DNA of 64,000 nucleotides, taken from the IMG/VR virus record IMGVR_UViG_3300038312_000193. One strand, written 5' to 3'. The stretch is from a virus. Position 1 is the stretch's first letter. Each line of letters opens with the position of its first letter. The position numbers and the translations under genes were made by a program. Under the pieces are notes generated by a model. The model was not told the DNA's origin, ran no database searches, and saw only the letters and a program-made list of their open reading frames with translations. Positions 8,856-50,872 of this stretch are shown here, piece by piece.

Positions 8856-8980
8856 TATTTGATCCTCCTATACTTCTATTATTTTACTTCTCTGTTATAG
8901 TTTTTAGAGGTTATGTTAATACCCTCTATAGAGCCATCATTTTATATTACCATTTTATGATGACTCTAACAAGGTACTAA

Positions 8981-9487: not shown

Positions 9488-9570
9488 TCCTTCCTTATGT
9501 TTATTTTATTGGTTTAATATCCTCTATAGAATACATTAACTGTTATATGCTAATGTATTCTAACAAGATA

Positions 9571-9936: not shown

Positions 9937-10020
9937 TTTGTTATAATCTCCTTTTTGTTTTTTATTTAAGGGAATAACCCTTATTTTTTGAATCAAATTT
10001 CGGTTTGGTGTTGAGTGGTT

Positions 10021-27969: not shown

Positions 27970-27979
27970 TAAATTAAAC

Positions 27980-28390
27980 AAAAATACTGCTTACGAGTGA
28001 GGCAGTTTGTATATTAATTCAAATATGGGGAGTCTGTTGATTCCCCGTTACCTAAATTAATGGGAACTGACTACCTACAGGAGCAGTTACCTATCTAATT
28101 CTACTTAACAATGCGCTATAGGCGTAATAATCTAGTAACCAATAGGATGTACACAAAACTTAACAGGTGTAATTCTATATTACATGGCTCTTCATAAACA
28201 GAACTAAACAAGCCTCTTAATAATGCTGAAATAGTTTAGTCGGAAGGATAGTTTTGCCTTGAGGTTATATCGAAAACGGGAATTGACTTATTTATATAGG
28301 CAGTTACCCGTTTTTTAAATTGAATAGGGTTGAAATCCCGAACAAAGAAGAAGTGGGAGATGACTTTTGCATTTACCCACTTTTATTATT
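27980..28390 (+). ncRNA. candidate structured RNA cluster
   Basis: ORF-free 450 nt with multiple hairpins, two of them related. Confidence 0.4.
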
Positions 28391-28421
28391 TATAACTCCA
28401 ATTTAATTAAAGGAGAATTAT

Positions 28422-30019: not shown

Positions 30020-30130
30020 ATAAAAATAGGTTGAGAGTCGCTATCTTAACTGACAAGAGTGGGATACCTTACACCCACTCTTTTTTATTATAAAAATGTA
30101 AGGGGTAATACTGGTAAGGAGTGTTGGAGA
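30020..30130 (+). promoter_or_regulatory. structured endonuclease leader A
   Basis: GTCGCT-loop hairpin; second loop CCTTACA complementary to TGTAAGG (30097) and to SD GTAAGG (30114). Confidence 0.7.
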
Positions 30131-31060
30131 ATGGGTAAGTGTTTAACATTTGAAGAAGTGAAATATTATATTGAAAGTTTAGGTTATATTTTAATTGATA
30201 TAATATATATTAATATTTTTTCAAAAATAACTTTTAAAGATATAGACGGTTTTTATTATTATTTACATATAAGTAATTTAAAAAAGGGATTTATTCCCAG
30301 TAAATTTCACAAATCTAATCCTTATACAATTCAAAACATAAAACTATGGTGTAAATTAAACAATAAACCATTTGAATTATTAAGTGAAGAATTTAAAGGT
30401 GCAAATAAAAACCTTAAATGGAGATGTTTAAAAGAAGATTGTGGAGAGATATTTGAAGCAAACTGGAATAAAATCATAATAGATAGAGGTTGTCCTTTTT
30501 GCGCAGGACATCAAGTAGGTTTATCTAATTGTCTAGCAACTAAAAATCCAGAACTTGCGTCTGAATGGCATCCAACCAAAAATGATGATTTAACTCCATA
30601 TGATGTGACTTGTGGAAGTAAAAAATACGTATGGTGGAAATGTAAAGAGTGTGGTTTTGAATGGGATGCAAGTATTGTTAATAGAAGAAATAATGGTTGC
30701 CCAAAATGTGCTGAATCAAAAGGTGAAAAAAGAATAAGTAAATGGTTGAATTTAAATAATATATCCTATTGTAGAGAATTTGTTTTTAATAATTTATTAA
30801 GTGATTTAGGAAATCCATTGAGATATGATTTTGCTATATTTGATAATGTAGATAAAACACAATTAAATATGTTAATTGAATATGATGGGAAACAGCATTA
30901 TGAATGGGTTAAAGGCTTTTATACAAAACAAGATTTTATAAAAATACAATATCACGATAAATTAAAAAATGATTATTGTATAAATCATAATATAAAATTA
31001 TTAAGAATTCCTTATTGGGATTTTGATAATATTGAAGAGATTTTAGATAAGGAATTCTAA
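30131..31060 (+). CDS. free-standing zinc-ribbon/Vsr-DUF559-like putative homing endonuclease
   Basis: CPFC, EWHPTKN, CPKC, ESKGE, RYDF, IEYDGKQH, LLRIPYW. Confidence 0.85.
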   Translation: MGKCLTFEEVKYYIESLGYILIDIIYINIFSKITFKDIDGFYYYLHISNLKKGFIPSKFHKSNPYTIQNIKLWCKLNNKPFELLSEEFKGANKNLKWRCLKEDCGEIFEANWNKIIIDRGCPFCAGHQVGLSNCLATKNPELASEWHPTKNDDLTPYDVTCGSKKYVWWKCKECGFEWDASIVNRRNNGCPKCAESKGEKRISKWLNLNNISYCREFVFNNLLSDLGNPLRYDFAIFDNVDKTQLNMLIEYDGKQHYEWVKGFYTKQDFIKIQYHDKLKNDYCINHNIKLLRIPYWDFDNIEEILDKEF

Positions 31061-31095
31061 TTAAAATATTAAAAGAATAAAAGGAGATTAATATA

Positions 31096-31464
31096 TTGAA
31101 ATTAACAATTAGTACCTATTATAATAATGAGTCTGGTGAGTATCTTACAACTAAATTCTATATAGATGGTGAAGAATGTAGCGAAGAAGAATATTGCGAA
31201 ATATTAGAAGATTTGAATAATATAAATAATGAAGTTGATTGTGATGGTAATTGTGAAGAATGCCCTAACAATAAATATGAACAGGAACAAGAAGAAAATC
31301 AATTTCTTCGTGCAGTAACAGATGCAGTTAATGATACTTTAGAAATGTTTGAAGATGAAAATACTTGTGATGATTGTAAATTTGAAGCATTGATGGGGTT
31401 AGTATTTTTAGGTGTAAACGGTGCATTACAAGGATGTGTGATAAAAGATAGTGGTTTTAATTAA
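31096..31464 (+). CDS. acidic Cys-rich hypothetical protein
   Basis: AAGGAG RBS; CDGNCEEC. Confidence 0.75.
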   Translation: MKLTISTYYNNESGEYLTTKFYIDGEECSEEEYCEILEDLNNINNEVDCDGNCEECPNNKYEQEQEENQFLRAVTDAVNDTLEMFEDENTCDDCKFEALMGLVFLGVNGALQGCVIKDSGFN

Positions 31465-31472
31465 ATATTGCT

Positions 31473-31507
31473 TAAATGCCCTGTTGGTTTACTAACCAGG
31501 GCATTTT
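31473..31507 (+). terminator. intrinsic terminator
   Basis: AAATGCCCTG/CAGGGCATTTT. Confidence 0.6.
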
Positions 31508-31582
31508 GTCATGCATTTAATTATGAAATGCCATGAAATTATGGTTTGATGATAATATTTAGAAATATAAATATGTTTATTT

Positions 31583-31693
31583 TAGAAGAGAGGTTTTTAG
31601 GGGTCGCTCCCCTATTCTCCGTACCCTCTCTTCTATTTTTATTTAAAGGGTTAGTACGGAGAAATAAAAATGTACGGAAAGAGGATGATAAAG
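31583..31693 (+). promoter_or_regulatory. structured endonuclease leader B
   Basis: 11-bp outer stem, GGGGTCGCTCCCC, TTCTCCGTAC complementary to GTACGGAGAA (31654) and GTACGGA (31672). Confidence 0.75.
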
Positions 31694-33007
31694 ATGCTAT
31701 TAACAAAAGAAGTTGAGGTTCAAGTAGTTGGAGGTACTTTAAAATACTATAGATCATTGGGTTATGATGTAAAGTGTAATGATAAAATATTAGTTAGTGT
31801 CTCAGATTTAAAGAAACGTTCAAAAGAAATGGTAAAAGTACAATGTGATGATTGTGGTAAAGTGTTTGATTTTCATTTTGATGCTTATCGTAAATATAGA
31901 GATGATTTTATTAATTGTAAATATCAATGTAGAGATTGTGAAATAAAAGAAATATGGGATAGGGTTAAAGATGAATGTGTTAATTTGAATTTTACTTTAA
32001 TTAGTGATATATCACATTATAAAACACATAAAAGTGAAGTTAAATTTATTTGTAATAATCATAAGGATTATGGAATTCAAAAAGTTACAGTTAATACTTT
32101 ATTAGTTAAACATTGTGGATGTAAATTATGTGCTAATGAGAAAAAAGCGAAATCTAAAGTATTAGAATTTGAGTTAGTTAAATCTAAATTTGATGAAGTA
32201 GGATATATTTTATTAGAAACAGAATATATTAGTGCAAAAACTCCGATGAGATATATTTGTCCTAAACATCCTGATATAATTCAGAAAATAACATATGATA
32301 AACTAAGTCATGGGCAAGGTTGTAAATATTGTGGATACGAGAAAATAGGTAAACATTTTAGACATTCATTTGAATATGTTTGGGATTGTTTTAATGATAA
32401 AAATTTAATCCTTATAGATGATGACTATAAAAATGACACACTTCCTTTAAGATATATATGCAAAAAGCATAGAAATAAAGGGATTCAAACAATTACTTTT
32501 AGTAGTTTAAAGGTAAGTGATTTTGGTTGTAAATATTGTGCCATAGAATATAGAGCATCTTTAATGAGTAAAGGTGGTGTAACCCCTTTACATAATTATT
32601 TACGAGAAAGAATTAATTCTTGGAAAGAAGATAGTATTAAGAATTATCATTACAAATGTGTATTAACGGGTGGACGATTTGATGTGATTCATCATTTATA
32701 TGGATTTAATATGATTTTATTAGAAACATTAGATAACTTACGTTTATCAATTCATCCGCAAGTAGGTTTATATACAGACAATGAATTATTATTAATTGAA
32801 CAAGAATGTTTAAAGTTACATTATAAATATGGATTAGGTGTATGTTTGTGCAAACCTTTACATAATTTATTTCATAAATTTTATTCTAAAGGAGAAAATA
32901 CTCCAGAACAATTTGAAGAATTTAAACAAAGATATTATAATTTTGAATTTGATGATTTATTAGACAATAAATATAAATATAAGAATATCCTGTCTAAAGT
33001 TAGTTGA
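31694..33007 (+). CDS. free-standing repeat-array HNH endonuclease
   Basis: three C..H/C..C repeats; IHHL...GVCLCKPLHNLFH HNH-type C-terminus. Confidence 0.85.
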   Translation: MLLTKEVEVQVVGGTLKYYRSLGYDVKCNDKILVSVSDLKKRSKEMVKVQCDDCGKVFDFHFDAYRKYRDDFINCKYQCRDCEIKEIWDRVKDECVNLNFTLISDISHYKTHKSEVKFICNNHKDYGIQKVTVNTLLVKHCGCKLCANEKKAKSKVLEFELVKSKFDEVGYILLETEYISAKTPMRYICPKHPDIIQKITYDKLSHGQGCKYCGYEKIGKHFRHSFEYVWDCFNDKNLILIDDDYKNDTLPLRYICKKHRNKGIQTITFSSLKVSDFGCKYCAIEYRASLMSKGGVTPLHNYLRERINSWKEDSIKNYHYKCVLTGGRFDVIHHLYGFNMILLETLDNLRLSIHPQVGLYTDNELLLIEQECLKLHYKYGLGVCLCKPLHNLFHKFYSKGENTPEQFEEFKQRYYNFEFDDLLDNKYKYKNILSKVS

Positions 33008-33026
33008 TTAAAAGGTGGTGGTGATA

Positions 33027-34061
33027 ATGCCAAAATTAGGTAAAAAACCTTATATTCCCAAAAAGGATTTAAACTTAACTTGTGCAGCATGTGGGGAATT
33101 AAAAAAGGAAACAAATTTTTACACTAGTTATAATCCTATTCATCAAACTGGACGTATCCCTTACTGCAAGTCTTGTCTTAAAAAAATGATTAGTGATGAA
33201 AAAGGAAATGTAACAATAGATAAATTACAGTCCACTCTTCAATTAATGGATCGTCCGTTTATTTTTGATCTTTGGAAAATATCTTTAGAAGGTAAAATGG
33301 ATAGTTTTGGTTGCTATATGAAAAATTTAAGTCTTAAACAAAATCGTGAACTTACATGGAAAGATTCTGAATTTAAACCTCAGTTAAATAGTGGATTAAA
33401 TTATGATAAAACATTAGATGTAGATATTAATAATAATGATAATAATGATGTTAATATATCAGAAGATTTAATTGAAAAATGGGGTTTTGGATATACCGAA
33501 CAGGAATTATCTTTATTTGAAAAGAAATGGAAACAACTTATAGATAATTACGGTGAAAAAACATCTTTTCATATAGAAGGATTAAAAACATATATAAGAT
33601 TTAGAGTTAAAGAAGAATTGGCAACCGCAAAGGGTGAAGTCAAAGATGCAAAAGAATGGGCAGCAATGGCTAAAGATGCTGCTACTGCTGCAAAAATTAA
33701 TGTTTCACAATTATCAAAATCTGATATTAGTGGTGGAGTAGATTTACTTCCACAATTATTTGAGGCAGTTGAATCAGAAGTAGGTATAATTCCTATACTA
33801 CCTTATTTAAAAGAACAACCTTATGATGATGCAGATTTGATTATTTGGACTATTGTTAATTATATAAGAAGATTGGAAGATAAACCAAGAATTGAATATA
33901 AAGAAATTTGGAATTTTTATGATCAAATGCTTTCAGATTATTATAACCAAAAGGGTTATTCAAATGAAATGGTGCAAAAAGAAAAAATAAAAAGAAATAA
34001 CGTATTTAGAGATTTAGGAGAAGTTTATAAAGAACCTGTTTATGAAGATGGTGATAATTAA
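33027..34061 (+). CDS. putative terminase small subunit / zinc-finger packaging protein
   Basis: CAAC...CKSC; translationally coupled to large terminase. Confidence 0.6.
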   Translation: MPKLGKKPYIPKKDLNLTCAACGELKKETNFYTSYNPIHQTGRIPYCKSCLKKMISDEKGNVTIDKLQSTLQLMDRPFIFDLWKISLEGKMDSFGCYMKNLSLKQNRELTWKDSEFKPQLNSGLNYDKTLDVDINNNDNNDVNISEDLIEKWGFGYTEQELSLFEKKWKQLIDNYGEKTSFHIEGLKTYIRFRVKEELATAKGEVKDAKEWAAMAKDAATAAKINVSQLSKSDISGGVDLLPQLFEAVESEVGIIPILPYLKEQPYDDADLIIWTIVNYIRRLEDKPRIEYKEIWNFYDQMLSDYYNQKGYSNEMVQKEKIKRNNVFRDLGEVYKEPVYEDGDN

Positions 34062-35815
34062 TGCCCTCTTATGCTAATTTTGAGAGTAAAAATAAAAAAT
34101 ATACTAAAAATAGATATGATATTTATGAACCAGCTTTTGAAACTCCTTTAAAAGCATCTGAATATAATTCAAATATAATTACAAGAAATATACAGGACTT
34201 TTCTGAAGTATGTTCTTTTCTTCGTTGGATGCCAGATATTTTTTGGGATATGTATAAACCTGAAAATGGTGGTTTAGTTTTTGATTTACACCAAAGAGTA
34301 ATGATTAGATTATTAGCAAGATTTCCCGAAAATTATTTTTGCGCTCCTAGAGGGATTAGTAAAACATTAATTCATGTAATGAACCAATACTGTACGGCCT
34401 GTTGTTTCCCTGGAGTGTCTCTCTCGATCACAGCTTCAACCAAAGAACAATCGGTTAAGATTTGGAAAGATAAACATGATGAAATTCTAAGATTTTATCC
34501 TTCGTTTGCTGAAAATATTAGATCGGCAACCTTTTCCAAAGACTCTGGAAAAGTTGAATTTGTAAATGGAAGTGTGGTTGATAATCTTGCAAATTCCCAA
34601 CAGAGTAAAGGTTTGAGGAGGCACAGAGGTGGTCTGGAAGAAAGCGCATTAATTGATAAAGATACATATGATGATTGTATTGAACCAATTTTTAACATTG
34701 GTAGAACTACAATGACTAGTGAAAATGATCCAGAAGAATTGAATGGACAAATTAATAGATATAGTACTTCAGGTTATAAAAATAGTGATGAATATGAAAA
34801 AATTATAACTATTGCAAAAAATATGGTTGATTTAAAAGGGTCATTCGTTTTTGGTTCAGATTGGTTTATACCTGTTCATTTTGGTAGACAAAAGAAATCA
34901 ACTATAGATAAAGCAAGAAAAAGTAATATAATTCGTTTTAAACAAAATTACTTATGTGATTGGGTAGGAGTAAGTGATGGTGGTTTAATTAATATTAGTA
35001 AATTAATTAAAGCTAGGACTATTACTTTACCCGAATTAGAATGTCCAAGAGATAAAAGAGGAAATTATGAATTATGTGAATATGTATTAGGTGTTGATGT
35101 AGCAAGAAGTTCTTCAGAAAATAATAATAAATCAGCTATAGTTGTTTTAAAAATTATTAGAAATCAATCAGGATTAATTAGGCAAATTCATATTGTCAAT
35201 ATAATAACACCCCCAAATGGTTTGAATTATGAAGAACAATCGGTAATAGTTAAAAGAGTTTTTTATCAATATGGTGGTAATTTAGATATTGGCAAATCTA
35301 GAGTAAAAGCTATCGTGGTCGATGGGAATGTAATTGGGCAGGGGTTAGTTGAAAAATTATTGGAAGATGTAACCGATTTTGAAACTAATCAAGAATTAGG
35401 GTGTTTTGCAACTATTAATACAGATGATAAACCGAAAGTTAAAGATGCACCTCCTTTTGTTTATGTTTTAAAAGCACAAGGTATTAATGGTGATATTATT
35501 AGAGAGTTTATAAATTATGTTGAGTCCAATAAATTAAAATTAGTGAAGTCTTTTGATGATATTAAACAAAATATACCAAAGGAGATTAATGAAGAAATAA
35601 TAGAAACTATTTGTTTACAAACACAATTATTAATAGATGAAGTAGCAAATTTAAAACTAAAAAAAACGCAAAATTCAATAACCGTAGAGCAAGTAGTTAA
35701 AAGGGTCGATAAAGATAGGTATTCAGGACTTGTTTATGGTTTGTATTACATATCTATGTTTTTAGAAGGAGAACAAGATGATTCTGATTATGATTTTGTT
35801 TTTGCATCATCGTAA
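34061..35815 (+). CDS. terL: terminase large subunit
   Basis: APRGISKT, GLRRH..LEES, GVDVARS, VDGNVIG, KDRYS. Confidence 0.9.
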   Translation: MPSYANFESKNKKYTKNRYDIYEPAFETPLKASEYNSNIITRNIQDFSEVCSFLRWMPDIFWDMYKPENGGLVFDLHQRVMIRLLARFPENYFCAPRGISKTLIHVMNQYCTACCFPGVSLSITASTKEQSVKIWKDKHDEILRFYPSFAENIRSATFSKDSGKVEFVNGSVVDNLANSQQSKGLRRHRGGLEESALIDKDTYDDCIEPIFNIGRTTMTSENDPEELNGQINRYSTSGYKNSDEYEKIITIAKNMVDLKGSFVFGSDWFIPVHFGRQKKSTIDKARKSNIIRFKQNYLCDWVGVSDGGLINISKLIKARTITLPELECPRDKRGNYELCEYVLGVDVARSSSENNNKSAIVVLKIIRNQSGLIRQIHIVNIITPPNGLNYEEQSVIVKRVFYQYGGNLDIGKSRVKAIVVDGNVIGQGLVEKLLEDVTDFETNQELGCFATINTDDKPKVKDAPPFVYVLKAQGINGDIIREFINYVESNKLKLVKSFDDIKQNIPKEINEEIIETICLQTQLLIDEVANLKLKKTQNSITVEQVVKRVDKDRYSGLVYGLYYISMFLEGEQDDSDYDFVFASS

Positions 35816-35848
35816 TATAAATATCTATAGAAAGGAGGTTTCCTTTTA

Positions 35849-37435
35849 TTGAGTGAAAAAGAAAGTGGTTTTGATATTGAAGTGAATTCATTAAGAGATA
35901 TGAATTATTATTTATCTGATACAACTTCTAATCCAAAATATTCTATGGAAAACTTAAAACAATACATTAAATATCCTATGATTTATAACAGGATTTTAAG
36001 AGTTATATCAAAACAAGCATATTATTCTAATGGATTATACGGAGAATCAATAGATAGAATGGTATCTTTACCTACATTATCTTATATAACTACTTTACGA
36101 AATAAAATAGGTAAAATGAAAAATTTCAAAAGTAGATTTAATTATGTGCTTAAATTATTAAATATTGATAGGTCAACTAGGGATATTCTTAGAAATTTAT
36201 TTATAGAAGGTATGTCAGTTAGTATTTTACGGGATACAACTGCATCAAATAAAAATATTGATACTTCATCTGGTTCAATTGAAACAATAGATAGATTAGA
36301 AGGTTTATCACTTAATGATAATTTTATGCTTCAACCATTAAATAACGATTATTGTAAAATTGTAGGGTTTCAAAATAATGTAAGTATTGCAGCGTTTGAT
36401 ATGCAATACTTTGATCAATTTAAACATGGTGGATTAGTGCATGAAATTAAGAATTACCCAAAGGAATTTATTAAGGCATATACCGAATATAAAAGAGATG
36501 TAAGTAAAAGATGGTTTATTCTTGATTATAAAAAGACTATTGCTTTAAAAGCAAAAGCTAGTGAGTTAGATGCTTTTGGAATTCCTTTTGGAATATCGGC
36601 TTTTGTTGATATAAAAATGAATGATGAATATGGTAATAGTCAATATAAATTAATTCAAGAGTTAGCTAGTAGTATATATTATTTAATACTTCCTGAAGGA
36701 GAAAAAGCAGGATCGTGTAGTCTTAATAAAACTCAGCAGGAAAATGTAATTAAAGCATTTGAAAATGCAGTTAAATTAAACACAAATGCTAATAGTAGTG
36801 CAAAAATTTCTACACTATCACTAGCACCAGGAACAAAAATAGATAGATTATCAAAAGACAGTTCGTTACTTAAAGATACATTAAATGAAGAAAATATGAA
36901 AAAAATATCTACAAATTTAGGTTTTGCTATATCTGCTTTAAATGCAGAAAGTCAAAATGCTAATTTAGGAAGTTTACAGATTAATTTAGATTTAATATCT
37001 GCACAAATATTTCAATATGTAAACGAAATAGCAAAAGAACAAACTAGGGTGATTAACGAGCATTTAGGTGTTTTACCTAGAGATTATATTGATATTAAAT
37101 ACTTACCTATAACTTGGCTAAATAGAAAAGATGTATATGAAAAAGCAAAAGATTTATATATGACTACTGGTGGAAGTAGAATGTTTTATATTGCAAGTGC
37201 AGGTTTTGATCCTGATGATTATTTAAGTATTTGTGACGAAGAATTTGAGGCAGGATTAGATGAAAAATATCTCCCTCATATTACTAGTTATACTGCAACA
37301 GATAGTGCCGATAAAGTTAATCCTGAAGGAAATTTTGGAGGAAGACCGTCAAAGGATATCAAAGATTTGAAAGATTCTGGTTTGAAAACTAGAAATTTTA
37401 AAAATAATGAACAAAAAGTTAAAAATAAAAAATAA
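35849..37435 (+). CDS. portal protein
   Basis: position after terL, size, C-terminal GGRP. Confidence 0.8.
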   Translation: MSEKESGFDIEVNSLRDMNYYLSDTTSNPKYSMENLKQYIKYPMIYNRILRVISKQAYYSNGLYGESIDRMVSLPTLSYITTLRNKIGKMKNFKSRFNYVLKLLNIDRSTRDILRNLFIEGMSVSILRDTTASNKNIDTSSGSIETIDRLEGLSLNDNFMLQPLNNDYCKIVGFQNNVSIAAFDMQYFDQFKHGGLVHEIKNYPKEFIKAYTEYKRDVSKRWFILDYKKTIALKAKASELDAFGIPFGISAFVDIKMNDEYGNSQYKLIQELASSIYYLILPEGEKAGSCSLNKTQQENVIKAFENAVKLNTNANSSAKISTLSLAPGTKIDRLSKDSSLLKDTLNEENMKKISTNLGFAISALNAESQNANLGSLQINLDLISAQIFQYVNEIAKEQTRVINEHLGVLPRDYIDIKYLPITWLNRKDVYEKAKDLYMTTGGSRMFYIASAGFDPDDYLSICDEEFEAGLDEKYLPHITSYTATDSADKVNPEGNFGGRPSKDIKDLKDSGLKTRNFKNNEQKVKNKK

Positions 37436-37468
37436 TAATATGATCAATTAAGGGGGTGAGTGTATTTT

Positions 37469-38989
37469 GTGAGTAAGTTTATATTAAATAATCAGTACAT
37501 AGAAATATGCGAAATGCCTGAAGAAGAATTGGCAGGACGCAGTAAAATCAAAATGTCAGCCCTAGAAATAGTGCCAGATAATTCTTCTTATAATGATAAT
37601 GGTATAACATGGTTAAGAGAATATATAGATGCAAATATTAAATCCGCAATTGGAATGCCCTATGTTGTTTCGTGGTTAGATGAAGAAAATCAAATTCCTT
37701 CAGATCATGGAATAATGAATTTCGATGATGAAGGTAATGTTGTTTTTGATGGTGTAACCGTTGGAACTGTGCTAGATGCTTATATTGAAGATATTGAAAT
37801 TGATGGTGAAACTAAAACTTTATTAATGACAGAGGGATTTATATATCGTCAAAGATATCCTAAATTTGTTGATTGGTTAAAAACTGAAATTGAAAATGGT
37901 AAAATTTATGGTTCTATTGAAATCAATGGTAAAGGTGAATCTAAGATAATTGAATATTTAGATGGTTCTACTAATTCAGATGGTACAAAAAAAATGGGTC
38001 GTATACCTACAGAGTTTGATTTTTCAGGATTAGCCATATTATATCTCACTGATCCTGCTGATAAAAATTCTATTGTTTTTGAAGTTAATTCAAAAGAAGG
38101 TGAAAATAAAAATATGGATATAGTAAATAAAGGTGTAACTATTGAAATGAATAAACTTAATTATTATGATATTTGCACGTTAATTACACGTGCTTTTAAT
38201 AAAGCAATGGGTTGTGATGATTGCTACTGTTGTGATTATGATATTTATAGGTTTTATCCAATTGAATCACAAGTTATTTTTAACAAATGGCGTGAAGTAG
38301 GTATTTATTATTCAACTACATATAAGATTGAGAATTCAGCAGTTACAATTGGGGAAATAATTAAAGTACAAGAAGATTGGACTCCAACTGCCGATTCTCA
38401 ACCTGTAGAAATAAATATAAATCAGATTAAAAAAATAATTGCTGAACAAAATCAAAAAGGAGGAACAGAAGTAATGAATGTTGAGGAATTAAATGCTAAA
38501 ATCGCTGAATTAAGTTCACAATTAACTGAACTGAATAATAAGGTAACTGAACTTAATTCTGTGAATGTTGAAAAGGATAATAAAATAGCAGAACTTAATG
38601 AAGCACTTGTAACCGCTAACAAGTCACTTGAAGAAGTTAATGCTAAATATTCTACACTTGAAGTAGAAACTAATGAATATAAGGAAAATTTAAATAAAAT
38701 TGAAACTGAAAAGAAAAAAGCAGAAGTAAATTCTTATTTTGAGGTTGAAATTCCTAAAAATAAATTTGATGAAGTAGAAGTTAATTCTCTAAAAGAGTAT
38801 GTTGAAAAATGTGATCTTGAAGGATTAAAGAAAGCTGAAGCGGATTTAATTGTTAAAAGGTTTAAAGAAGGAAAATTAACTGGTATTGAAACTAATTCAA
38901 CAAAAGAAGAAAATAATATTTTCTTCCATACTAAAGAAGAAAAGATGGATGAAAACTTAGTAGATGCTGGCAAAGCATTATTTGTTTAA
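37469..38989 (+). CDS. prohead protease/scaffold
   Basis: DHG, GSIEI motifs; long coiled-coil C-terminus. Confidence 0.75.
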   Translation: MSKFILNNQYIEICEMPEEELAGRSKIKMSALEIVPDNSSYNDNGITWLREYIDANIKSAIGMPYVVSWLDEENQIPSDHGIMNFDDEGNVVFDGVTVGTVLDAYIEDIEIDGETKTLLMTEGFIYRQRYPKFVDWLKTEIENGKIYGSIEINGKGESKIIEYLDGSTNSDGTKKMGRIPTEFDFSGLAILYLTDPADKNSIVFEVNSKEGENKNMDIVNKGVTIEMNKLNYYDICTLITRAFNKAMGCDDCYCCDYDIYRFYPIESQVIFNKWREVGIYYSTTYKIENSAVTIGEIIKVQEDWTPTADSQPVEININQIKKIIAEQNQKGGTEVMNVEELNAKIAELSSQLTELNNKVTELNSVNVEKDNKIAELNEALVTANKSLEEVNAKYSTLEVETNEYKENLNKIETEKKKAEVNSYFEVEIPKNKFDEVEVNSLKEYVEKCDLEGLKKAEADLIVKRFKEGKLTGIETNSTKEENNIFFHTKEEKMDENLVDAGKALFV

Positions 38990-39011
38990 TTAATAAAGGA
39001 GGATAATAAAT

Positions 39012-39857
39012 ATGAGTCTTTTTAAATTTCAAAATTATAGTGCAATAAAAAATGTTAAAGATAATCCTAGAGTAAAGGCAACTCAGATTACCAAGAATGG
39101 TTATGCTTTTGGTATTGCCGCTTATACTTCTGGTGGAACAAAATCTAAGGTAGAAATTACTGTTGCTGGTACTACTCCTGCGGATGGTAATATCATATTT
39201 GATATTGGTGGGCAAAGAGTATATACAAATATAGCAGGATCAACTCAAACTACTGCTGCCTTGGTAGCTGCTGAAATTAAAGCCTCTTTAGATGCAGTGT
39301 TACTTGGTTTATCATATACAGTTGCTATTTCATCTGCAAAGATTACTGTAACTGCACCTGCAAACGGAGTTAGTATTATTCCTGTAACTGTTGATGGTGT
39401 AAATATGGGATTAAGTGCATGTACTCTTTCGATGACATATACTGCTGGCACTGATGCCGTATCTTATGACGAAGCTGCCGTTCCTTTTGCTGATGATGCC
39501 GCAACTAAAGCAGGGCAGGTTTATGTTGCTATGAATATAATTGATAAACCTGAAACTATTAATACTTCTGATTATCAAGTTGAAATTGGAGAATATGTTA
39601 GATCAATCAATCTTAACAATATGATAGATGAATATGTTGAAATATCTAGTGATTTATGCACAACTGCTTTTACTAGTGTAAACGTTGGAGATATTTTAGT
39701 TCCTATTCCTTCTGGTACTAATAATATGAAATGGGAAGTAACTAGTGCCACTGGTTATAATGTAGTATTAGTGGTTAAAAAGAAAACTCCTTTTGGAGCA
39801 TTTACTATTGATGGTTCTTCTGATGGTGGGTATCTCTGTCAGATTTCGTCAAATTAA
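39012..39857 (+). CDS. capsid-associated/decoration protein
   Basis: between scaffold and capsid genes; Ala/Thr/Gly beta-rich. Confidence 0.65.
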   Translation: MSLFKFQNYSAIKNVKDNPRVKATQITKNGYAFGIAAYTSGGTKSKVEITVAGTTPADGNIIFDIGGQRVYTNIAGSTQTTAALVAAEIKASLDAVLLGLSYTVAISSAKITVTAPANGVSIIPVTVDGVNMGLSACTLSMTYTAGTDAVSYDEAAVPFADDAATKAGQVYVAMNIIDKPETINTSDYQVEIGEYVRSINLNNMIDEYVEISSDLCTTAFTSVNVGDILVPIPSGTNNMKWEVTSATGYNVVLVVKKKTPFGAFTIDGSSDGGYLCQISSN

Positions 39858-39883
39858 TAAAATAAATGTAGGAGGTAAACAAT

Positions 39884-41254
39884 ATGTTTGACATAAAGAG
39901 TATTAAAGTTGAAGCACAAAATGTAGAAGTTAATTCTGCAATGAAGAAAACTCAACCTAAAAACGAAGGAGTAGAAATATTCTCTGCTATTTGTACTGGT
40001 AAAGATTTAAGTAGATATGGTAAAAAAGTTGATTCAGTTATGGCATATATGACAAATTTAGGACAAAAAGCAGTTGATGGAGATATCCAGGCAAAAGCCG
40101 AAATAAATGCAATTAGAACTCTAATGATTGAAGCACCTTTGGTAAAAAGATTAAATATTTTTGATTTTATGGGTGAAAAAATTAGTGTTGGTTTCGATGA
40201 AGAAGTAAGATTTAAGGTTTATCAACTTCAGGGAACTAAATCTAGTACTCAGGCTAATAGTGGTAGTTTCCCGTTTGCAACTTATAATTGGAGAACCCAA
40301 GTAATGGATGAATTTAAGACTATTACTGGTGGTATTTTAGTTGATTATAGAGAAGTTGCATCTGGTAATACTGATGCTATTAATGTAGCAAACGAGCAAG
40401 TTATTACTGATATGTTAAATCAGATGTTTTATCAGGTATTGGTTGCTTATTACAATGGTATTAAAGGTGCTACTAGTTTGAAAAATTTTGTTGAAGCATC
40501 AGGTATAACTAAATCTGCTCTTGACGCAGTAATTAAGAAAGCACGTAGATTTGGTAATTTAACTATTACTGGTGATTATTCTGTAGTTTCTCAACTTGAA
40601 GATTTTGTTGGATTTACTACTACTACTAATACAGTACAGTTCTCTGAAGCAGTTATGGAAGAAATACGCAAAACTGGTATGCTGAAATTCTATAGAGGTT
40701 TAGGAGTTGTTGAAATTCCTAATACTTATAATTTGACTGAACTTAATAGTGGTGCAGATTTCTTTGAAACTTATCTGCCTGAAGGTTTACTTTTAGTATT
40801 GCCTACTGGTGCAATTAGTCCTTTGAAGATTGGTGTAAAGGGTGGTTTAACTTCATTGTCTGCTACTGATATTAATCTTAAATCAGAAGTCACACGTTTC
40901 GATATGGAATTCGGTAGATTTTGTGCCGCTTAATACAGTAATGTATTAATGATAATCCCTGAAAAAATCTGGAACCCTAAGTCGTAATTTGATATGGGAA
41001 TCAGAGGTGAAGGTTAATTTTCAAAGATTAACCAGCCGCAACGCATACGGATTGAAACTACAATGTAGAATATAATATCCGCAAGAGGCAGGGACATCCC
41101 ATGTGGATGAAAAGATATGCTGAACTTATAGGAAACTATAAGAACTAGAGGATAAAAAACCTTTAGGATAACAAAATTGACAGAATTAATAAAAGAGTAT
41201 ATACCTATGGTTGGGTTAATATCTGATTCAGATTATGCCGTAGATAAAAGATAA
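39884..41254 (+). CDS. major capsid protein, spliced: join(39884..40915,41180..41254), 368 aa
   Basis: position and size; frame restored as ...RFDMEFG|TELIKEYIPMVGLISDSDYAVDKR*. Confidence 0.85.
40916..41179 (+). ncRNA. group I intron, ORF-less, 264 nt
   Basis: exon ends in U; P1 CGGU/GCCG; P10 UUUUGU/ACAGAA; P3 UCCCUG/CAGGGA; P7 GCAUA/UAUGC; P9 hairpins; terminal G. Confidence 0.9.
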
Positions 41255-41275
41255 TTTAATAATGTAATTATTTTT

Positions 41276-41364
41276 AGAGGGATAGGGTAGCTCCCGAAAG
41301 TGTAATCTCCAATACATTTCCCTCTTTAATTATTAATTGGAGTTTATTATATGGAGGTAATAAA
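41276..41364 (+). promoter_or_regulatory. structured endonuclease leader C
   Basis: AGAGGGA/TCCCTCT, GGGTAGCTCCC, loop CTCCAA complementary to TTGGAG (41337) and SD TGGAG (41352). Confidence 0.7.
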
Positions 41365-42468
41365 ATGTCTAAAAAACTTACGTATGAATATGTAAAAAAT
41401 TATATTGAGCAATTTGGATATAAATTAATTAGTATAGAGTATTTAAATGCTCATCAACTTTTAGAAATTGAATGTGATAAAGAGCATAGATATTTCGCAA
41501 AATTTAATAATTTTAAATCAGGTAAAAGATGTCCAGAATGTGCAAAACTTAATAGAGGTAATAATAGAAGATTGTCATTTGAATTTATTAAAAGTGATAT
41601 AGAATCAAATGGAATTTTAAAATTATTATCGGATAATTATAAAAATAATACTACTTTATTAACTATTAGATGTTTACATGGACATGAATTTAATATTAGA
41701 TATTGTGATTTAAAAAGAAACCATATACAATGTCCTATATGTAGGAAAGAACAAATTGCTAAAGATTATGCGTTTACTTATGAAGAAGTTAAAACGTATA
41801 TTGAAAGTCAAGGTTATGTATTATTATCTACAGAATATAAAAACAATACTATCCCATTGTTAGTAAAATGCCCTAATGGTCATATTTACTATGTCAAATA
41901 CAGTAATTTTAGAGATGGTAAAAGGTGTAGGATTTGTTCTATGAAAGAAGCAGGATATAAAAAAAGACTTACTTTTGAACAAGTTAAAAAATATATTGAA
42001 TCTTTTGAAGGATATAAATTATTATCTACTGAGTATAAAATTGCCAGTAGTAAATTATTAATTAAATGTCCAGAAAATCATATATTTGAATGTTCTTTTA
42101 ATAAATTTAGAGATGGTCAAAGATGTCCAATTTGTAAGGAATCTAAAGGTGAACAAAGAGTAAGAGAATATCTTGCCAATAACAATATACCATTTAAAAG
42201 ACAGTATATATTTGAGGATTGTAGAAATATTGAACCATTAAGATTTGATTTTGCGGTGTTTGATTCTGAAAAGAATTTAGTCAAATTAATTGAATATGAT
42301 GGTGAGTTTCATTATTTACCAATAGAAAGCAAGAGTAAATTAAGGTATCAACAAAAATTAGATTCAATCAAAAATAATTATTGTCAAAATAATAATATAA
42401 TATTATTGCGTATCCCCTATTGGGATTTTGATAATATTGAAAATATCTTATTAAAAGAAGTTAGTTAA
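41365..42468 (+). CDS. free-standing repeat-array Vsr/DUF559-like putative homing endonuclease
   Basis: four ~65-aa repeats, then ESKGE, LRFDF, IEYDGEFH, LLRIPYW. Confidence 0.85.
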   Translation: MSKKLTYEYVKNYIEQFGYKLISIEYLNAHQLLEIECDKEHRYFAKFNNFKSGKRCPECAKLNRGNNRRLSFEFIKSDIESNGILKLLSDNYKNNTTLLTIRCLHGHEFNIRYCDLKRNHIQCPICRKEQIAKDYAFTYEEVKTYIESQGYVLLSTEYKNNTIPLLVKCPNGHIYYVKYSNFRDGKRCRICSMKEAGYKKRLTFEQVKKYIESFEGYKLLSTEYKIASSKLLIKCPENHIFECSFNKFRDGQRCPICKESKGEQRVREYLANNNIPFKRQYIFEDCRNIEPLRFDFAVFDSEKNLVKLIEYDGEFHYLPIESKSKLRYQQKLDSIKNNYCQNNNIILLRIPYWDFDNIENILLKEVS

Positions 42469-42505
42469 CAAATTAAATTTTTATGATTAAAAGGAGACTT
42501 ATTTT

Positions 42506-42970
42506 ATGAGTATTAATATGGATACACGTTCATCAATTAAAAATTTATGTCCTTGGGCAGTAAGTTTTAGATTGCCTAATTCAAATGGTGATGTTTATTT
42601 AGAAGCAAATAAAAAAACAACTATTAATAATGGAGAATTAGTTACTTTAATAGAAAATAATAATGTTCTTTTTGTTGGAACTGGAAATGGTAATCATGCT
42701 CGTATTTATGTTGATAACCCTGAAGTACGAGTATATGTTGGTTTTGAGTCAGAAGATGGTAAAGAAAAACAATTTGTTTTAACCGATGAAGAATGCCAAA
42801 AATTATTTGATTACAAAACATTTGGTACTTTTAAAAAACATATAGAAGAAAATGTTGTTGCCAATCATGAGAAACATAAAATAATGGAATATGCAAGAAA
42901 AATTAAACTAAATGACTATGATAAGATCAGTTTTTTAGAAAGTCATTGTGGTATCCCATTTAAGGAATAA
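42506..42970 (+). CDS. head module hypothetical protein
   Basis: AAGGAG RBS; position after capsid gene. Confidence 0.75.
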   Translation: MSINMDTRSSIKNLCPWAVSFRLPNSNGDVYLEANKKTTINNGELVTLIENNNVLFVGTGNGNHARIYVDNPEVRVYVGFESEDGKEKQFVLTDEECQKLFDYKTFGTFKKHIEENVVANHEKHKIMEYARKIKLNDYDKISFLESHCGIPFKE

Positions 42971-42984
42971 GGAGGTTATCACTT

Positions 42985-43410
42985 ATGGGTACACCTCTTC
43001 AAACTTTATATACAAGATTTCAAACAAAAGTAGACGAGGATTTAACTGGAAAAGAATCTTTAATTTTTGCTTTAGTGGATGTTGCTATAAGTAAATCCGA
43101 TAAAACATGTATTCATGGTTTAACTTACGTTTTAACTGATCCAGAAGCAAATCCATTAACTTATGATGGTAATTTTGATGAAAGTTTAAATAATGATGAA
43201 ATAGAATTGCTTTCTTTGTGGATGAAATATGAATGGAAAAATAGAAAAGTATCTAAACTTGAGGCACAAGAAAGAGATATTGGCACTAGTGATTTCAATA
43301 GATTAGAAAATAAAGCAACTTTACTAAAAGAATTACGTTCAGGAGTAAAAGAAGTTTTAGACGAAATAAATTCTTTAAAAAATGATATGAATACTTATCA
43401 ATATAATTAA
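42985..43410 (+). CDS. putative head-tail adaptor
   Basis: MGTP start, L...EIELLSLWM..EW motif, position. Confidence 0.6.
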   Translation: MGTPLQTLYTRFQTKVDEDLTGKESLIFALVDVAISKSDKTCIHGLTYVLTDPEANPLTYDGNFDESLNNDEIELLSLWMKYEWKNRKVSKLEAQERDIGTSDFNRLENKATLLKELRSGVKEVLDEINSLKNDMNTYQYN

Positions 43411-43421
43411 GGGGTGATATT

Positions 43422-43664
43422 TTGAAAGAAAGCATACTTATACAAGTGCCTGTATCTGGTGAAATGACATTATCGGATGTATGTGATAAAGAATGCCGTA
43501 AATTGCGCTCCTTATTATATTTACTTGAAAAAGAATTTAATACAAAAATGATTGAACATTCTGAGATTAGAAAATTTATATTAGATTCATCTAATTTTAT
43601 TCAACGTATTCCAGATATGGTTTCTGAGATTGTAAAGGTTGATGTAAATGGAAATAAAAAATGA
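43422..43664 (+). CDS. hypothetical protein
   Basis: RBS, operon packing. Confidence 0.7.
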   Translation: MKESILIQVPVSGEMTLSDVCDKECRKLRSLLYLLEKEFNTKMIEHSEIRKFILDSSNFIQRIPDMVSEIVKVDVNGNKK

Positions 43665-44832
43665 ATGGATGACTGATTATAGTTATTTTGGAACAGATTA
43701 TCCAAATAACAAATTATTAGATGATGCTAAATATAGATTTGAATTACAAAAACAATCTTTAGAAGGTAAAGATGCTTTAATTGATGGAGTTTCTGAACGT
43801 ATAGTTGCTCAAAATCATACTAATCCTTTAAATCAAGAAAAGTATGATAAGAAATTATGTTTTGATATAAGTAGTAATGTGCATACAGGTTCAATTATTG
43901 AATTTGATAGTAAAACTTATTTAGTTACAAGTCAAATATTTAGTAAACAGGCATATAAAATTGGTAGTGTATTGGAATGTGTAAATACGTTGAATGTTTA
44001 CAAAAACAACACCTCTTACCAAATACCTTGTGTCGTAGAATCTGGAGTAAGAACTTCACAACTAGGCACAGACAAAAACACCTATATTGAAATACCATCA
44101 GGTACTATTACTATGAGATTGCCTAATACTGAAATTACTAGGTTGATTGCTAGGGATGAGGTTTATCAGATAGGATTGCAATCATGGCAGGTCAAAGACA
44201 TTAACGATATTATTGAACCTGGATTATTGGTTTTTAAATTAGAATACAGCCAAGTGGCACAAGAAACTCATGTTTATGGGATTACTATACTAAATGGATT
44301 GTCAATAAGTATTCAGGAAGGTAGTAATCTTCAGTTAAATGTACAGGCCACAGATAATTCAGAAATTGTATCTTCCCCTACACTATCTTATGCTAGTAGT
44401 AATGAATTGATTTGCACTGTTGATTCTAGTGGATTGGTGAGTGCTATTGATGGTGGTAGTTGTGTGGTTAGTGTTAGTTTTAATGGGGTGAGTGCAAGTA
44501 TAGCAATTAATGTGATTGAAGCAGTTCAACATAATATTACAGCAGAAATTAATAGTGGAAGTTCTACAATTGTATTAAATAAAACATCTAATTATACTTG
44601 TGTATTTAAAGATAACGGTGTTGTAGTGCCAGGTACTTCCGTATTTTATTTAACTGCTGACGATGGTACAAGTAATACTACTTTAGCAACAATATCGGTA
44701 CAAGATAGTGCGTTGAATACTTGTACAATAACTGCTGGAAATACTCTTGGATATGTGAAACTTTGGGTAAGAAATGAAAGTGGAAGTATTGTATCTCAAC
44801 CGTTTAGAATACAGATTAAGAATTTGTTTTAA
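43648..44832 (+). CDS. head-closure-like protein with Ig-like (Big_2) domain
   Basis: YASSNELICTVDSSGLVSAIDGGSCVVSV. Confidence 0.7.
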   Translation: MEIKNEWMTDYSYFGTDYPNNKLLDDAKYRFELQKQSLEGKDALIDGVSERIVAQNHTNPLNQEKYDKKLCFDISSNVHTGSIIEFDSKTYLVTSQIFSKQAYKIGSVLECVNTLNVYKNNTSYQIPCVVESGVRTSQLGTDKNTYIEIPSGTITMRLPNTEITRLIARDEVYQIGLQSWQVKDINDIIEPGLLVFKLEYSQVAQETHVYGITILNGLSISIQEGSNLQLNVQATDNSEIVSSPTLSYASSNELICTVDSSGLVSAIDGGSCVVSVSFNGVSASIAINVIEAVQHNITAEINSGSSTIVLNKTSNYTCVFKDNGVVVPGTSVFYLTADDGTSNTTLATISVQDSALNTCTITAGNTLGYVKLWVRNESGSIVSQPFRIQIKNLF

Positions 44833-44846
44833 AGGATGTGTTTTGA

Positions 44847-45347
44847 TTGGAGAAATCATTTAAATTTAAAAATATAGAGAGTAACTTAACTAAACTATTT
44901 ATGTTGATTTATGAAAATCAAAACATCAATAAATATATATACTATTTAAATGATGATCCCCTCTCCTCTCCTGCTGTACCTGTTGACCTTTATGAAAACG
45001 GCAATTTTATCTTAGGTTTTTATGATGGAAGTATACCTACAGAAGAAAAAATAAGATTCTTCCTTAATGTATCATCTGGCAATCTTGCTAAAAATCCAAT
45101 GGATAAAATTGTATATCCTGTCCAAGTTATAATTCCAAGTAGATGGGAAATTCTTCATGGTCGTGGTGAGATAAGAGCAATTAGAATTTTCGATGAAATT
45201 TCACAAATGATAGATCAACAAAAAGTAGCAGGAATGACAGGAGCAGAAGTAATTAACTATAGGGCAGGTAGAATGTCTGGTACAGAATATTCTATATTTT
45301 CTGTTGAAATAGTTATTAAATCTGCAACAACAAAAGGGTTGAGATAA
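44847..45347 (+). CDS. putative tail completion protein
   Basis: position and size. Confidence 0.55.
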   Translation: MEKSFKFKNIESNLTKLFMLIYENQNINKYIYYLNDDPLSSPAVPVDLYENGNFILGFYDGSIPTEEKIRFFLNVSSGNLAKNPMDKIVYPVQVIIPSRWEILHGRGEIRAIRIFDEISQMIDQQKVAGMTGAEVINYRAGRMSGTEYSIFSVEIVIKSATTKGLR

Positions 45348-46078
45348 TGGATAATACTAAATATATTTTTGCTCAACCTGATTATATAGAAGGAATTGGG
45401 AACATATATCCTATTAAATTAAAGGATTATGATAAATTTCAAGAATGTTCAAAGTTATTATATATATCTAAAGGTAATTTTATTGAATGTGATGATGTTC
45501 CTTTATTGGCCTTAATATTTATTTATTTTGAACAATTAGGTTTAACTGAAGAAGAATTAGTTACTTCTTTAGAAAACTTGTTTTCATTAGTTTTAAAAGA
45601 AACAGTTAAATTAAAAACTGATGAGAAAACAATTTGGTTTGAGATAAATAATAATGATAATATAATTAATTTTAATAATTATGATGTTTTGCGGTCAGTA
45701 ATTATGAAACAAAATTTAATGCATGAACCTAAGATTTATAAAACAAAACTTATGAATCAATGGGCAGAAAAAGCATTAAAAGCAAAACAAAAAAATGCTC
45801 CTAATATTACCTTAGAAGATATTGTTTCAACCGTATCTGTTGGGTGTCATAAGCATTATTGGGATTTAGAAAATTATACAATTTATCAACTTTATTCTGA
45901 TTTTTATAGATTAAGAAAAACAATTGAATATGATACAAGCATACAATTCCAATGTGTAAGTACGAAAGACTTAAAAATACAAGATTATGCTGAAAGTTTA
46001 GACTTATTTCATAATCCATATGATGATTTATTTGTAAGTTCAGATAAATTAAGTGGACTAAATAAAGCAATAAAATAA
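45347..46078 (+). CDS. tail module hypothetical protein
   Basis: IYPIKL, VIMKQN, YTIYQL motifs; coupled to upstream gene. Confidence 0.7.
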   Translation: MDNTKYIFAQPDYIEGIGNIYPIKLKDYDKFQECSKLLYISKGNFIECDDVPLLALIFIYFEQLGLTEEELVTSLENLFSLVLKETVKLKTDEKTIWFEINNNDNIINFNNYDVLRSVIMKQNLMHEPKIYKTKLMNQWAEKALKAKQKNAPNITLEDIVSTVSVGCHKHYWDLENYTIYQLYSDFYRLRKTIEYDTSIQFQCVSTKDLKIQDYAESLDLFHNPYDDLFVSSDKLSGLNKAIK

Positions 46079-46093
46079 AGGAGGAAATTATTT

Positions 46094-46861
46094 ATGGGTA
46101 AAAAACTTGTCTGTGATGTATTTGACGCAGTAATGATTGATAATACAGATGGTTCCGTAGCAGGTACTACTACATTACAAAGTGCAAATATTGATGTAGT
46201 GGTAAATGAAGTAGAGGTTAGGGCTGGTAAAGGTAATGCATTACAAGCTACTCTTCATGTTCAACGTGATATAAACGTTGATCTAACTGATATCGAGTGG
46301 AAACCCGAATGGGTTGCTAAACAGTTAGGTACTACTATTACTACTGGTGCAGGAGAAGCTTATGCTATGCCTAAATGGTATGAAGCAGTAGATTTAGATG
46401 GGGAAGAAGTAGGAACAGCTATTGGTTTTAATCTTGATGAAACCCCTCTTACAACTGATAGTGGATTAAAAATATATGATGAAGATGGCACAGAAGTTGT
46501 TGTAACAACTGGTTATACTATTACCGGAAAAGCAGTTACAATTGTTGGTGGAGTTGCTGGCGATATGTATGAAGTAAGAACATATAAATATGCTACTCCT
46601 GCTACTACACAAACATTAACATTTGAATCTGATAAATTCGCTAAAGGTGTAACACTTGCATTGTCTACATTTGAAACAGATGAAAATGAAACACATCCAT
46701 TTGAATTACAGTACCAATTTCCTTCAGCCATACCTAATGGTAGTTTCCAGATTAATACTTCGTCTGAGAAAAATGCTTCAACACAGAATTTAAAATTGAA
46801 AATTGTTAAACCCGCAACCACAACCGTTGTTGGTAAGTTACTTAGAATACCACTTCAATAA
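46094..46861 (+). CDS. major tail (tube) protein
   Basis: EVRAGKGN motif, Thr/Gly-rich, position. Confidence 0.75.
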   Translation: MGKKLVCDVFDAVMIDNTDGSVAGTTTLQSANIDVVVNEVEVRAGKGNALQATLHVQRDINVDLTDIEWKPEWVAKQLGTTITTGAGEAYAMPKWYEAVDLDGEEVGTAIGFNLDETPLTTDSGLKIYDEDGTEVVVTTGYTITGKAVTIVGGVAGDMYEVRTYKYATPATTQTLTFESDKFAKGVTLALSTFETDENETHPFELQYQFPSAIPNGSFQINTSSEKNASTQNLKLKIVKPATTTVVGKLLRIPLQ

Positions 46862-46874
46862 TTTTATTAATATA

Positions 46875-46972
46875 AAAGATAGATTAAATTAGACCAATTT
46901 AATTAATAAGGACGATTCAGGAAAATCGTCCTTATTTTATTTTATTCAGGAATATCTACAGGAGGATAAATA
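46875..46972 (+). promoter_or_regulatory. structured endonuclease leader D (second loop apparently inverted)
   Basis: two hairpins; downstream TTCAGGAA and SD CAGGAGG. Confidence 0.65.
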
Positions 46973-50762: not shown

Positions 50763-50872
50763 TATATTATTTATAAATATTTAAAAATTTAATATCTTAA
50801 AATTCATCAGAAGTGGGATATATCCACTTCTTTTTTTGTTGTCTATTTTTAAAAGAAAGGAAGTGGATATAT

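Follow-up and report, generated by a model that had tools for sequence, protein, structure and literature searches.

Three of the four free-standing endonuclease genes in a 64,000-nucleotide (nt) stretch of viral DNA (IMG/VR record IMGVR_UViG_3300038312_000193; the whole stretch is referred to here as the window) are preceded by a structured leader, in which one exposed segment, termed anti-X, could pair with either of two direct repeats, X1 and X2. Contigs from IMG/VR, metagenomes and Bacillaceae supplied 36 non-redundant leaders of the same design, which carry about two dozen X sequences. Comparison of these leaders demonstrates a fold with three-way covariation, involving a stem termed P1 and the anti-X:X1 and anti-X:X2 helices, and it demonstrates a specific, nearly exclusive association of the leader with endonuclease genes. 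In our opinion, which we hold with moderate confidence, these sequence features point to a cis-acting pseudoknot brake on nuclease translation, in which X1 would serve as a competing decoy, combined with a terminator of host-polymerase transcription.

The leaders are designated A to D after the genes that they precede. The plan common to A, B and C consists of the purine-rich stem P1, whose other arm is pyrimidine-rich, a T-run, X1, an AT-rich spacer and X2 at the Shine-Dalgarno (SD) sequence. The layouts of the 5' domain differ. Both a small hairpin, P2, and a single-stranded anti-X lie inside P1 of leader B; inside P1 of leader C are P2 and a further hairpin, P3, with anti-X in the P3 loop; in leader A, P2 precedes a simple hairpin, which displays anti-X in its loop. 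The three leaders, within one genome, carry three different X sequences. The elements are as follows (nt, nucleotides; bp, base pairs).

30029..30051, + strand: leader A, P2-like hairpin with an 8-bp stem and a 7-nt loop, located 5' of the main stem, not inside it
30055..30088, + strand: leader A, terminator-like hairpin (9 bp, 30055-30082) whose 10-nt loop contains anti-X (30067-30073); T-run from 30083
30097..30121, + strand: leader A, repeats X1 (30097-30103) and X2 (30114-30119), the latter overlapping the SD; ATG at 30131
31583..31645, + strand: leader B, 5' domain; P1 31583-31593 with 31625-31635, P2 31599-31613, anti-X 31615-31624, T-run 31636-31645
31654..31693, + strand: leader B, repeats X1 (31654-31663) and X2 (31672-31678); SD 31680-31685; ATG at 31694
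41276..41336, + strand: leader C, 5' domain, a three-way junction; P1 41276-41282 with 41319-41325, P2 41285-41295, P3 41300-41317
41307-41312, + strand: leader C, anti-X in the P3 loop; a U-rich tract follows P1
41336..41364, + strand: leader C, repeats X1 (41336-41342) and X2 (41352-41356), the latter inside the SD; ATG at 41365
46882..46972, + strand: leader D, hairpins 46882-46904 and 46905-46936, T-run, X1 (46945-46952) and X2 (46959-46966), the latter overlapping the SD

A first-pass annotation of the window, made from its letters alone, had described a hairpin, an exposed segment and two repeats, the second at the SD, with the segment complementary to both repeats in A, B and C, and the sequence reads as described. 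What that description did not contain is that the exposed segment lies in a terminator-like stem (P1) with a T-run. In leader A, the predicted unpaired probability of anti-X is 0.98. The annotation had also placed the leader before every free-standing endonuclease, with the complementarity described for A, B and C. Leader D does have the hairpins, the T-run and the repeats, but its loop at 46916-46923 holds X itself, in the same sense, instead of its complement, and there is no loop-to-repeat pairing. Leader D is thus a degenerate form. The complement of its X occurs across the window at chance frequency only, and no partner for the D loop was found there. The X1 and X2 of D resemble those of the leaders at loci L026, L074 and L076, and one may conjecture that D arose through a flip of the hairpin loop. 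No additional copies of X or anti-X were found inside or 3' of the endonuclease genes.

Three-way covariation and association with endonuclease genes

The first line of evidence comes from a covariance model, R1, which was built from 14 B-type leaders with its structure limited to P1 and P2 and which retrieved 15 full leaders (alignment A4). The pseudoknot columns lie outside the model, and the alignment was therefore not fitted to the pairing of anti-X with X1 or X2. Among these 15 B-type leaders, 94% of the cells of P1 are paired, with compensatory change at 10 of 11 pairs; the corresponding values are 86% and 9 of 9 pairs for anti-X:X1, and 81% and 5 of 6 pairs for anti-X:X2. The observed covariation scores were matched by none of 500 shuffles, and sliding the partner by 1–3 columns reduced pairing to 40–60%. 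Because four alignment rows are out of register, the covariation counts are conservative. P2 is poorly aligned (59%), yet its stems differ and remain paired when read row by row. Leader B scores 92 bits on the same model. The compensatory variation that had been proposed from the leaders of the window is borne out on this larger scale: across many related leaders, pairing of anti-X with both repeats is kept through compensatory changes.

The covarying elements are best understood as an RNA structure on the coding strand, a reading favored by the G-U pairs that P1 contains on that strand, by the position of anti-X and by an H-type geometry. Anti-X is always the upstream copy and occupies an unpaired position, with a mean predicted unpaired probability of 0.80 in the 5' domain. 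In B-type leaders, only 0–2 nt separate it from the 3' arm of P1, and the linker to X1, at 11–35 nt, is long enough to cross P1; this geometry fits an H-type pseudoknot.

The same observations bear on an alternative that operates at the level of DNA or protein, according to which the three X copies, one of them inverted, are nuclease operators or paired sites for a dimeric RNA-binding protein such as CsrA. Such sites could account for the differences in X between genes, for the regular X1-to-X2 spacing (median, 17.5 nt) and for the GGA present in many X sites, and autorepression by I-TevI provides a precedent (PMC3014915). However, the copy in inverted orientation is invariably the upstream one on the transcribed strand, where it occupies a loop or junction left unpaired within a covarying stem that has G-U pairs, and several X classes lack GGA. 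Moreover, one X class is common to the HNH-like nucleases of L010, L019 and L021 and to the GIY-YIG nucleases of L037 and L041, which have no detectable similarity, whereas related B-type nucleases use six X classes. We regard this alternative as very unlikely. Its most specific version, an operator for autoregulation by the cognate nuclease, is not supported, as X does not track nuclease identity. This uncoupling of X from the protein argues against a nuclease-tuned RNA cofactor as well, so that both roles that the first-pass annotation had offered, autoregulation by the cognate protein and an RNA cofactor, are disfavored, while its statement that the leader travels with nucleases of different types stands, the unrelated families identified being HNH-like and GIY-YIG. 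A riboswitch was also considered and rejected: there is no conserved ligand-binding core, conservation being limited to the architecture and to a few nucleotides of the junction while helices and loops vary, and no Rfam riboswitch matches in the window.

The second line of evidence is the distribution of the leader among genes. Relatives were gathered around the neighboring exonuclease and YonG-like genes in IMG/VR (for example, L002, L001, L010, L008, L011 and L013), and the sample was widened by a scan of metagenome contigs; two Bacillaceae genomes also bear the design (L062 and L063). A G+C-filtered detector of the triple formed by anti-X, X1 and X2 returned 36 matches adjoining the start of an open reading frame (ORF) on the coding strand, compared with 3 on the opposite strand. 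With ORFs assigned by homology, the triple was present upstream of 19 of 29 ORFs for HNH-like endonucleases and of 5 for GIY-YIG enzymes, as opposed to approximately 4 of approximately 350 other ORFs. In a test that did not select on the triple, 66% of endonuclease genes showed complementarity of at least 8 nt between an upstream segment and the region near the ribosome-binding site (RBS) when both came from the same leader, compared with 15% of non-cognate combinations, while the values for other genes were 17% with their own leader and 16% with a non-cognate one.

These frequencies also bear on the most conservative explanation, that the leaders are nothing but the terminators of preceding genes with a ribosome site after them, the complementarity having arisen by chance or through template-switch mutation. 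Plain terminators without complementarity do stand ahead of some homologous endonuclease genes (L100, L107, L131 and others), and AT-rich DNA yields many short matches. Nevertheless, the difference between cognate and non-cognate leaders is confined to the endonuclease genes, three helices covary, and ahead of B a canonical terminator exists separately (31478-31505). We regard this explanation as extremely improbable.

Relation to int-alpA and to other regulatory RNAs

Sequence comparison led us to file the window leaders as an AT-rich, sub-threshold variant of the Rfam int-alpA design (RF02996), within which B would lack P3, A would be re-wired and D would be degenerate. The grounds for this placement are the plan shared with the int-alpA consensus and with its member L154, and the junction nucleotides of leader C. 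The consensus comprises P1, UA, P2, GAAAA, P3 with a C/U-rich loop, the 3' arm of P1, a U-run and a purine box complementary to the P3 loop. L154, from a Bacilli genome, is detected by the RF02996 model as a true member (50.8 bits); two direct repeats ahead of its start codon are complementary to its P3 loop, a counterpart to the anti-X pairing of A, B and C. Leader C has the three-way junction of P1, P2 and P3, including UA and GAAA, whereas B (no P3), A (tandem hairpins) and D do not. A U-run followed by a purine box complementary to the exposed loop or segment is found in A, B and C, as it is in the consensus and in L154. The int-alpA plan is also followed by the related leaders of L026, L074, L076, L060, L096, L106 and L120. 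The differences from int-alpA are that the window copies are AT-rich, that the B-type has lost P3 and carries anti-X single-stranded in the junction, that A has P2 outside the main stem, and that D lacks anti-X.

The RF02996 model itself gave no match on the whole window at its gathering score (35.8 bits), none at E values up to 5 on positions 27400-54200 or up to 10 on leader C alone (121 nt), and none at E values up to 1 on 20 related loci and 4 related phage contigs. In the window scan, no Rfam family matched the leaders. The first-pass annotation could not assign them to a named RNA family, and the model scores on the window copies give no such assignment either; their plan, however, is that of int-alpA. 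The latter is an orphan motif, typed "sRNA" (small RNA) in Rfam, and no paper testing its function was found in the literature.

RBS-sequestering structures are established for the endonuclease genes of T4 I-TevI, Aeh1 mobE and T4 segB (PMC3014915). The present leaders resemble the hairpins of this T4 type (I-TevI, I-TevII/III, Aeh1 mobE and T4 segB) in that an RNA structure in cis would limit the access of ribosomes to the message of a selfish nuclease. Unlike in those hairpins, the sequence that would pair with the RBS region is displayed by a terminator-like stem, in its loop or junction, which leads to a predicted pseudoknot, and it has two alternative targets. A T4-type RBS hairpin with an internal late promoter was considered for the leaders and rejected: the pairing runs from a loop to a linear segment across a closed stem, and the −10-like hexamers between X1 and X2 would, as promoters, start transcripts within the SD. 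The classical T4-like form was seen before two homologous endonuclease genes of relatives, at L086 (~1120-1195) and L090 (~1100-1174), each with a strong sigma-A-type promoter (−35, 17-nt spacer, −10) and a 9-nt anti-SD in the spacer, so that the RBS would be paired only in read-through transcripts.

Other SD-occluding H-type pseudoknots include the rpsO/S15 operator, the leader of T4 gene 32, and the preQ1-II and SAM-II riboswitches. Common features are a second helix whose 3' strand coincides with or adjoins the SD, and helices positioned for coaxial stacking. Unlike these, the endonuclease leaders have no conserved ligand pocket or identified protein partner, the sequence of the pseudoknot helix is freely variable, and there is a tandem decoy. 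A third point of comparison is provided by kissing-loop RNAs, such as the plasmid antisense RNAs of the CopA/CopT type and the retroviral DIS dimerization hairpin. The leaders share with them palindromic hexamers, here in P2 loops of 7–10 nt, and the display of a recognition sequence in a loop beside a terminator; they differ in that the loops of A and B are not palindromic and in that dimerization of the leaders is a prediction from loop sequence.

Proposed mechanism and alternative roles

According to the mechanism that we propose, each element would be the 5' leader RNA of a mobile endonuclease cassette. P1 with its U-run would halt much of the transcription by the host RNA polymerase, while a YonO-like polymerase of the phage would be expected to read through. 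In the read-through RNA, anti-X would form a pseudoknot with either X1 or X2. Pairing with X2 would hinder binding of the 30S subunit and turn translation off, and pairing with the decoy X1 would free the ribosome site and turn translation on. Being near iso-energetic, the two helices would set a low and buffered level of nuclease synthesis, and the leaders thus probably keep the selfish nucleases scarce. The two-state pseudoknot switch suggested in the first-pass annotation is in accord with the pairing of anti-X with both repeats, with the H-type geometry and with the similar predicted stabilities; the effect on translation, both repression and the decoy role, and the termination are what we infer from these models.

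Several observations are consistent with such a switch. Anti-X is 6–11 nt long, and the predicted duplex energies are −13.3 kcal/mol for anti-X:X1 and −11.9 kcal/mol for anti-X:X2. X2 abuts or overlaps the SD in all cases. Its pairing is maintained through G-U wobble in individual leaders (L001, L098 and those of the L077 type). The single-target variants of L087/L088 and L138 keep the SD-adjacent site and lack X1, for which reason we read loop-to-RBS pairing as the core interaction. In 29 of the 36 leaders, P1 is succeeded by a T-run (6 or more T among 8 nt), compared with 15% of controls, and a terminator consensus scan calls D.

Other observations weigh against the brake, or at least against its simplest form. 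X1 is the more stable partner in 21 of the 36 leaders and is transcribed first; therefore, the default state may leave the SD free, and "repressor" would be an incomplete description. In several B-type leaders, X2 ends 1–2 nt short of the SD. The whole-leader folding energy of A, B and C is ordinary relative to shuffles (z ~ −0.7), and the terminator-like stems of B and C are branched. Where X2 differs from X1, a wobble test gave 9 G-U against 13 A-C combinations, which is uninformative and leaves the extended X2 helix without a wobble signature. Finally, the strict triple is present in just 18 of 74 B-type endonuclease homologs from metagenomes (about a quarter). The remaining homologs include wobble-containing or single-target versions, plain terminators and a promoter-in-hairpin arrangement. 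The design is missing from isolated phages with homologous nucleases, namely Herelleviridae, Lactococcus 949-like phages and one S. thermophilus phage, some of which show, as judged by eye, sigma-A-type promoter hexamers instead.

The preference for X1 is compatible with a different role, in which the leader stabilizes or processes the mRNA and does not repress it. The 5' structure and an SD-like X1 would then protect the transcript from 5'-exonuclease decay, or the stack of P1 on anti-X:X1 would be a processing site. In Firmicutes, STAB-SD elements and 5' stem-loop stabilizers, and in phage SP82 a polypurine stabilizer, protect mRNA. The energy of X1 binding to the anti-SD is −6 kcal/mol or lower in 12 of the 36 leaders, compared with 4% of random segments; anti-X usually prefers X1 to X2, and the SD then stays free; and the 5' domains are predicted to be stable (−11 to −26 kcal/mol). 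However, two thirds of the X1 sites are not SD-like, and stabilization explains neither why X2 tracks anti-X nor why single-target variants keep the SD-adjacent site and not X1. We consider this role improbable.

A further alternative concerns P2. Among P2 loops of 7–10 nt, a palindromic hexamer of the form U-NNNN-A was counted by eye in approximately 12 of approximately 21 distinct hairpins, compared with 6% of comparable loops in the same DNA. Examples are UCAUGA, UGAUCA, UAAUUA, UAGCUA and UUAUAA, usually with RAG just before the hexamer. Palindromic loops occur in L002, L017, L025, L022, L026, L037, L039, L011 and L106; in L021; in L019, L060, L074 and L076; in L010, L036 and L114; and in L008 and L096. 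Near-identical leaders exchange one palindromic P2 for another (L036 versus L039; L010 versus L021 and L037). These swapped loops suggest, as far as sequence can, loop-loop dimerization and a possible action of the terminated leader RNA in trans. The leader might then work as a small RNA: terminated transcripts of 60–75 nt would dock through the self-complementary P2 loop as a kissing dimer, and their anti-X would occupy in trans the second X site of a read-through mRNA, which would result in dose-dependent repression and would account, with one anti-X in cis and one in trans, for the two X copies.

Apart from the palindromes and from the fact that near-identical leaders differ in P2 stem and loop but remain palindromic, this model draws on the terminator-like end directly 3' of anti-X, on the classification of int-alpA as an sRNA gene in Rfam, and on the use of three X sequences by A, B and C in one genome. 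Set against it are the P2 loops of A, B and L001, which are not self-complementary; loops of 5 nt, such as that of C, which give only a 4-nt palindrome; proximity, which favors pairing in cis; and the lack of a promoter placed 5' of P1 by a consensus scan for sigma-70-type promoters, which found 143 sites compared with 141.5 expected from shuffles. A conserved motif located 55–90 nt 5' of P1 in relatives was likewise discarded, having 23 matches in the window compared with 16.5 expected; it is not enriched and is probably homologous intergenic DNA. On balance, action in trans appears unlikely to us. A more elaborate form of it, a self-recognizing device for RNA dosage, seems rather doubtful: terminated leaders would recognize nuclease mRNAs of their own cassette, while these are still being made, by way of a palindromic P2 "address" that diversifies between cassettes, and the second anti-X would lead to occupation of both X1 and X2 and shut translation off. 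If this were true, int-alpA-type RNAs would be cassette-specific sensors of copy number or dose, borne by selfish genes of phages.

Genomic setting and significance

The window, with a G+C content of 27.6%, is part of a large SPbeta-like phage. Terminase and portal genes are present as phage markers, and the closest isolated relatives of the YonG-like gene at 33015-34061 are Bacillus phages of the SPbeta type (52% identity). The four free-standing endonuclease genes are all located in the phage late region.

30131..31060, + strand: endonuclease A, 309 amino acids (aa); DUF4379 treble-clef zinc finger, phrog_559 HNH endonuclease
31694..33007, + strand: endonuclease B, 437 aa; phrog_681/12131; immediately 5' of the YonG-like gene
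41365..42468, + strand: endonuclease C, 367 aa; phrog_559, DUF4379, CapR; weak DUF2726 match below the cut-off
46973..48280, + strand: endonuclease D, 435 aa, TTG start; phrog_559/681/12131

A fifth endonuclease homolog (52615-53436) is embedded in an intron-like insert and has no such leader; no others were found in the window by homology. Endonuclease-free alleles of the YonG-like locus were found only in SPbeta-like prophages that are ~52% identical and have an unrelated upstream hairpin, so that the cassette boundary could not be mapped.

The 937-aa protein encoded at 22000-24813 matches the Pfam RdRP (two-barrel polymerase) family, as YonO does, and phrog_8308, and is probably, to judge by these matches, a YonO-like single-chain RNA polymerase. 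The endonuclease cassettes are expected to lie in the operon that this polymerase would transcribe. In SPbeta, the late genes are made as a single transcript by YonO, which lacks the flap domain, the part used in hairpin-dependent termination (PMC5467207). Read-through by a YonO-like polymerase would explain why terminator-like stems are tolerated between essential late genes.

Several other features of the region deserve mention. A 12-bp inverted repeat (31004-31058) spans the stop codon of endonuclease A, just 5' of the RBS of the ORF at 31096-31464, and the canonical terminator at 31478-31505 follows that ORF, ~75 nt 5' of leader B. Two collinear structured copies of ~280 nt each (40904-41184 and 53685-53970), up to 81% identical and G+C-richer, interrupt reading frames. 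The first follows the ORF at 39884-40933, with a short open frame running on to 41262. The second belongs to an insert (52502-53963 as a whole) between the ORFs at 50813-52501 and 53964-58130, which bears the endonuclease gene at 52615-53436. The two copies resemble related group I-type introns, one with a homing endonuclease, with no call by Rfam. Farther upstream, a 450-nt non-coding, G+C-richer stretch (27970-28421) precedes the exonuclease gene and is missing from the relative L002, which has tRNA-like sequence instead; within it, a match to abiF RNA (28204-28240; 34.8 bits, cut-off 37), which is the sole Rfam hit close to threshold in this region, is unrelated to the leaders. In L002, a TnpB-like transposase gene (8630-9964; phrog_506), preceded by a strong hairpin, lies between the exonuclease gene and the endonuclease cassette. 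This intergenic place thus appears to be a hot spot that gathers several kinds of mobile genes.

Homing endonucleases are needed in small amounts and should not disturb the essential genes around them. The leader described here is a portable, covarying control module common to unrelated nucleases, and its logic, one antisense segment with two targets, is legible in the sequence. It offers a concrete, testable function for the orphan Rfam motif int-alpA. Moreover, the approximately two dozen sets of anti-X and X borne on one scaffold are naturally orthogonal and could aid the design of translational regulators in Gram-positive hosts.

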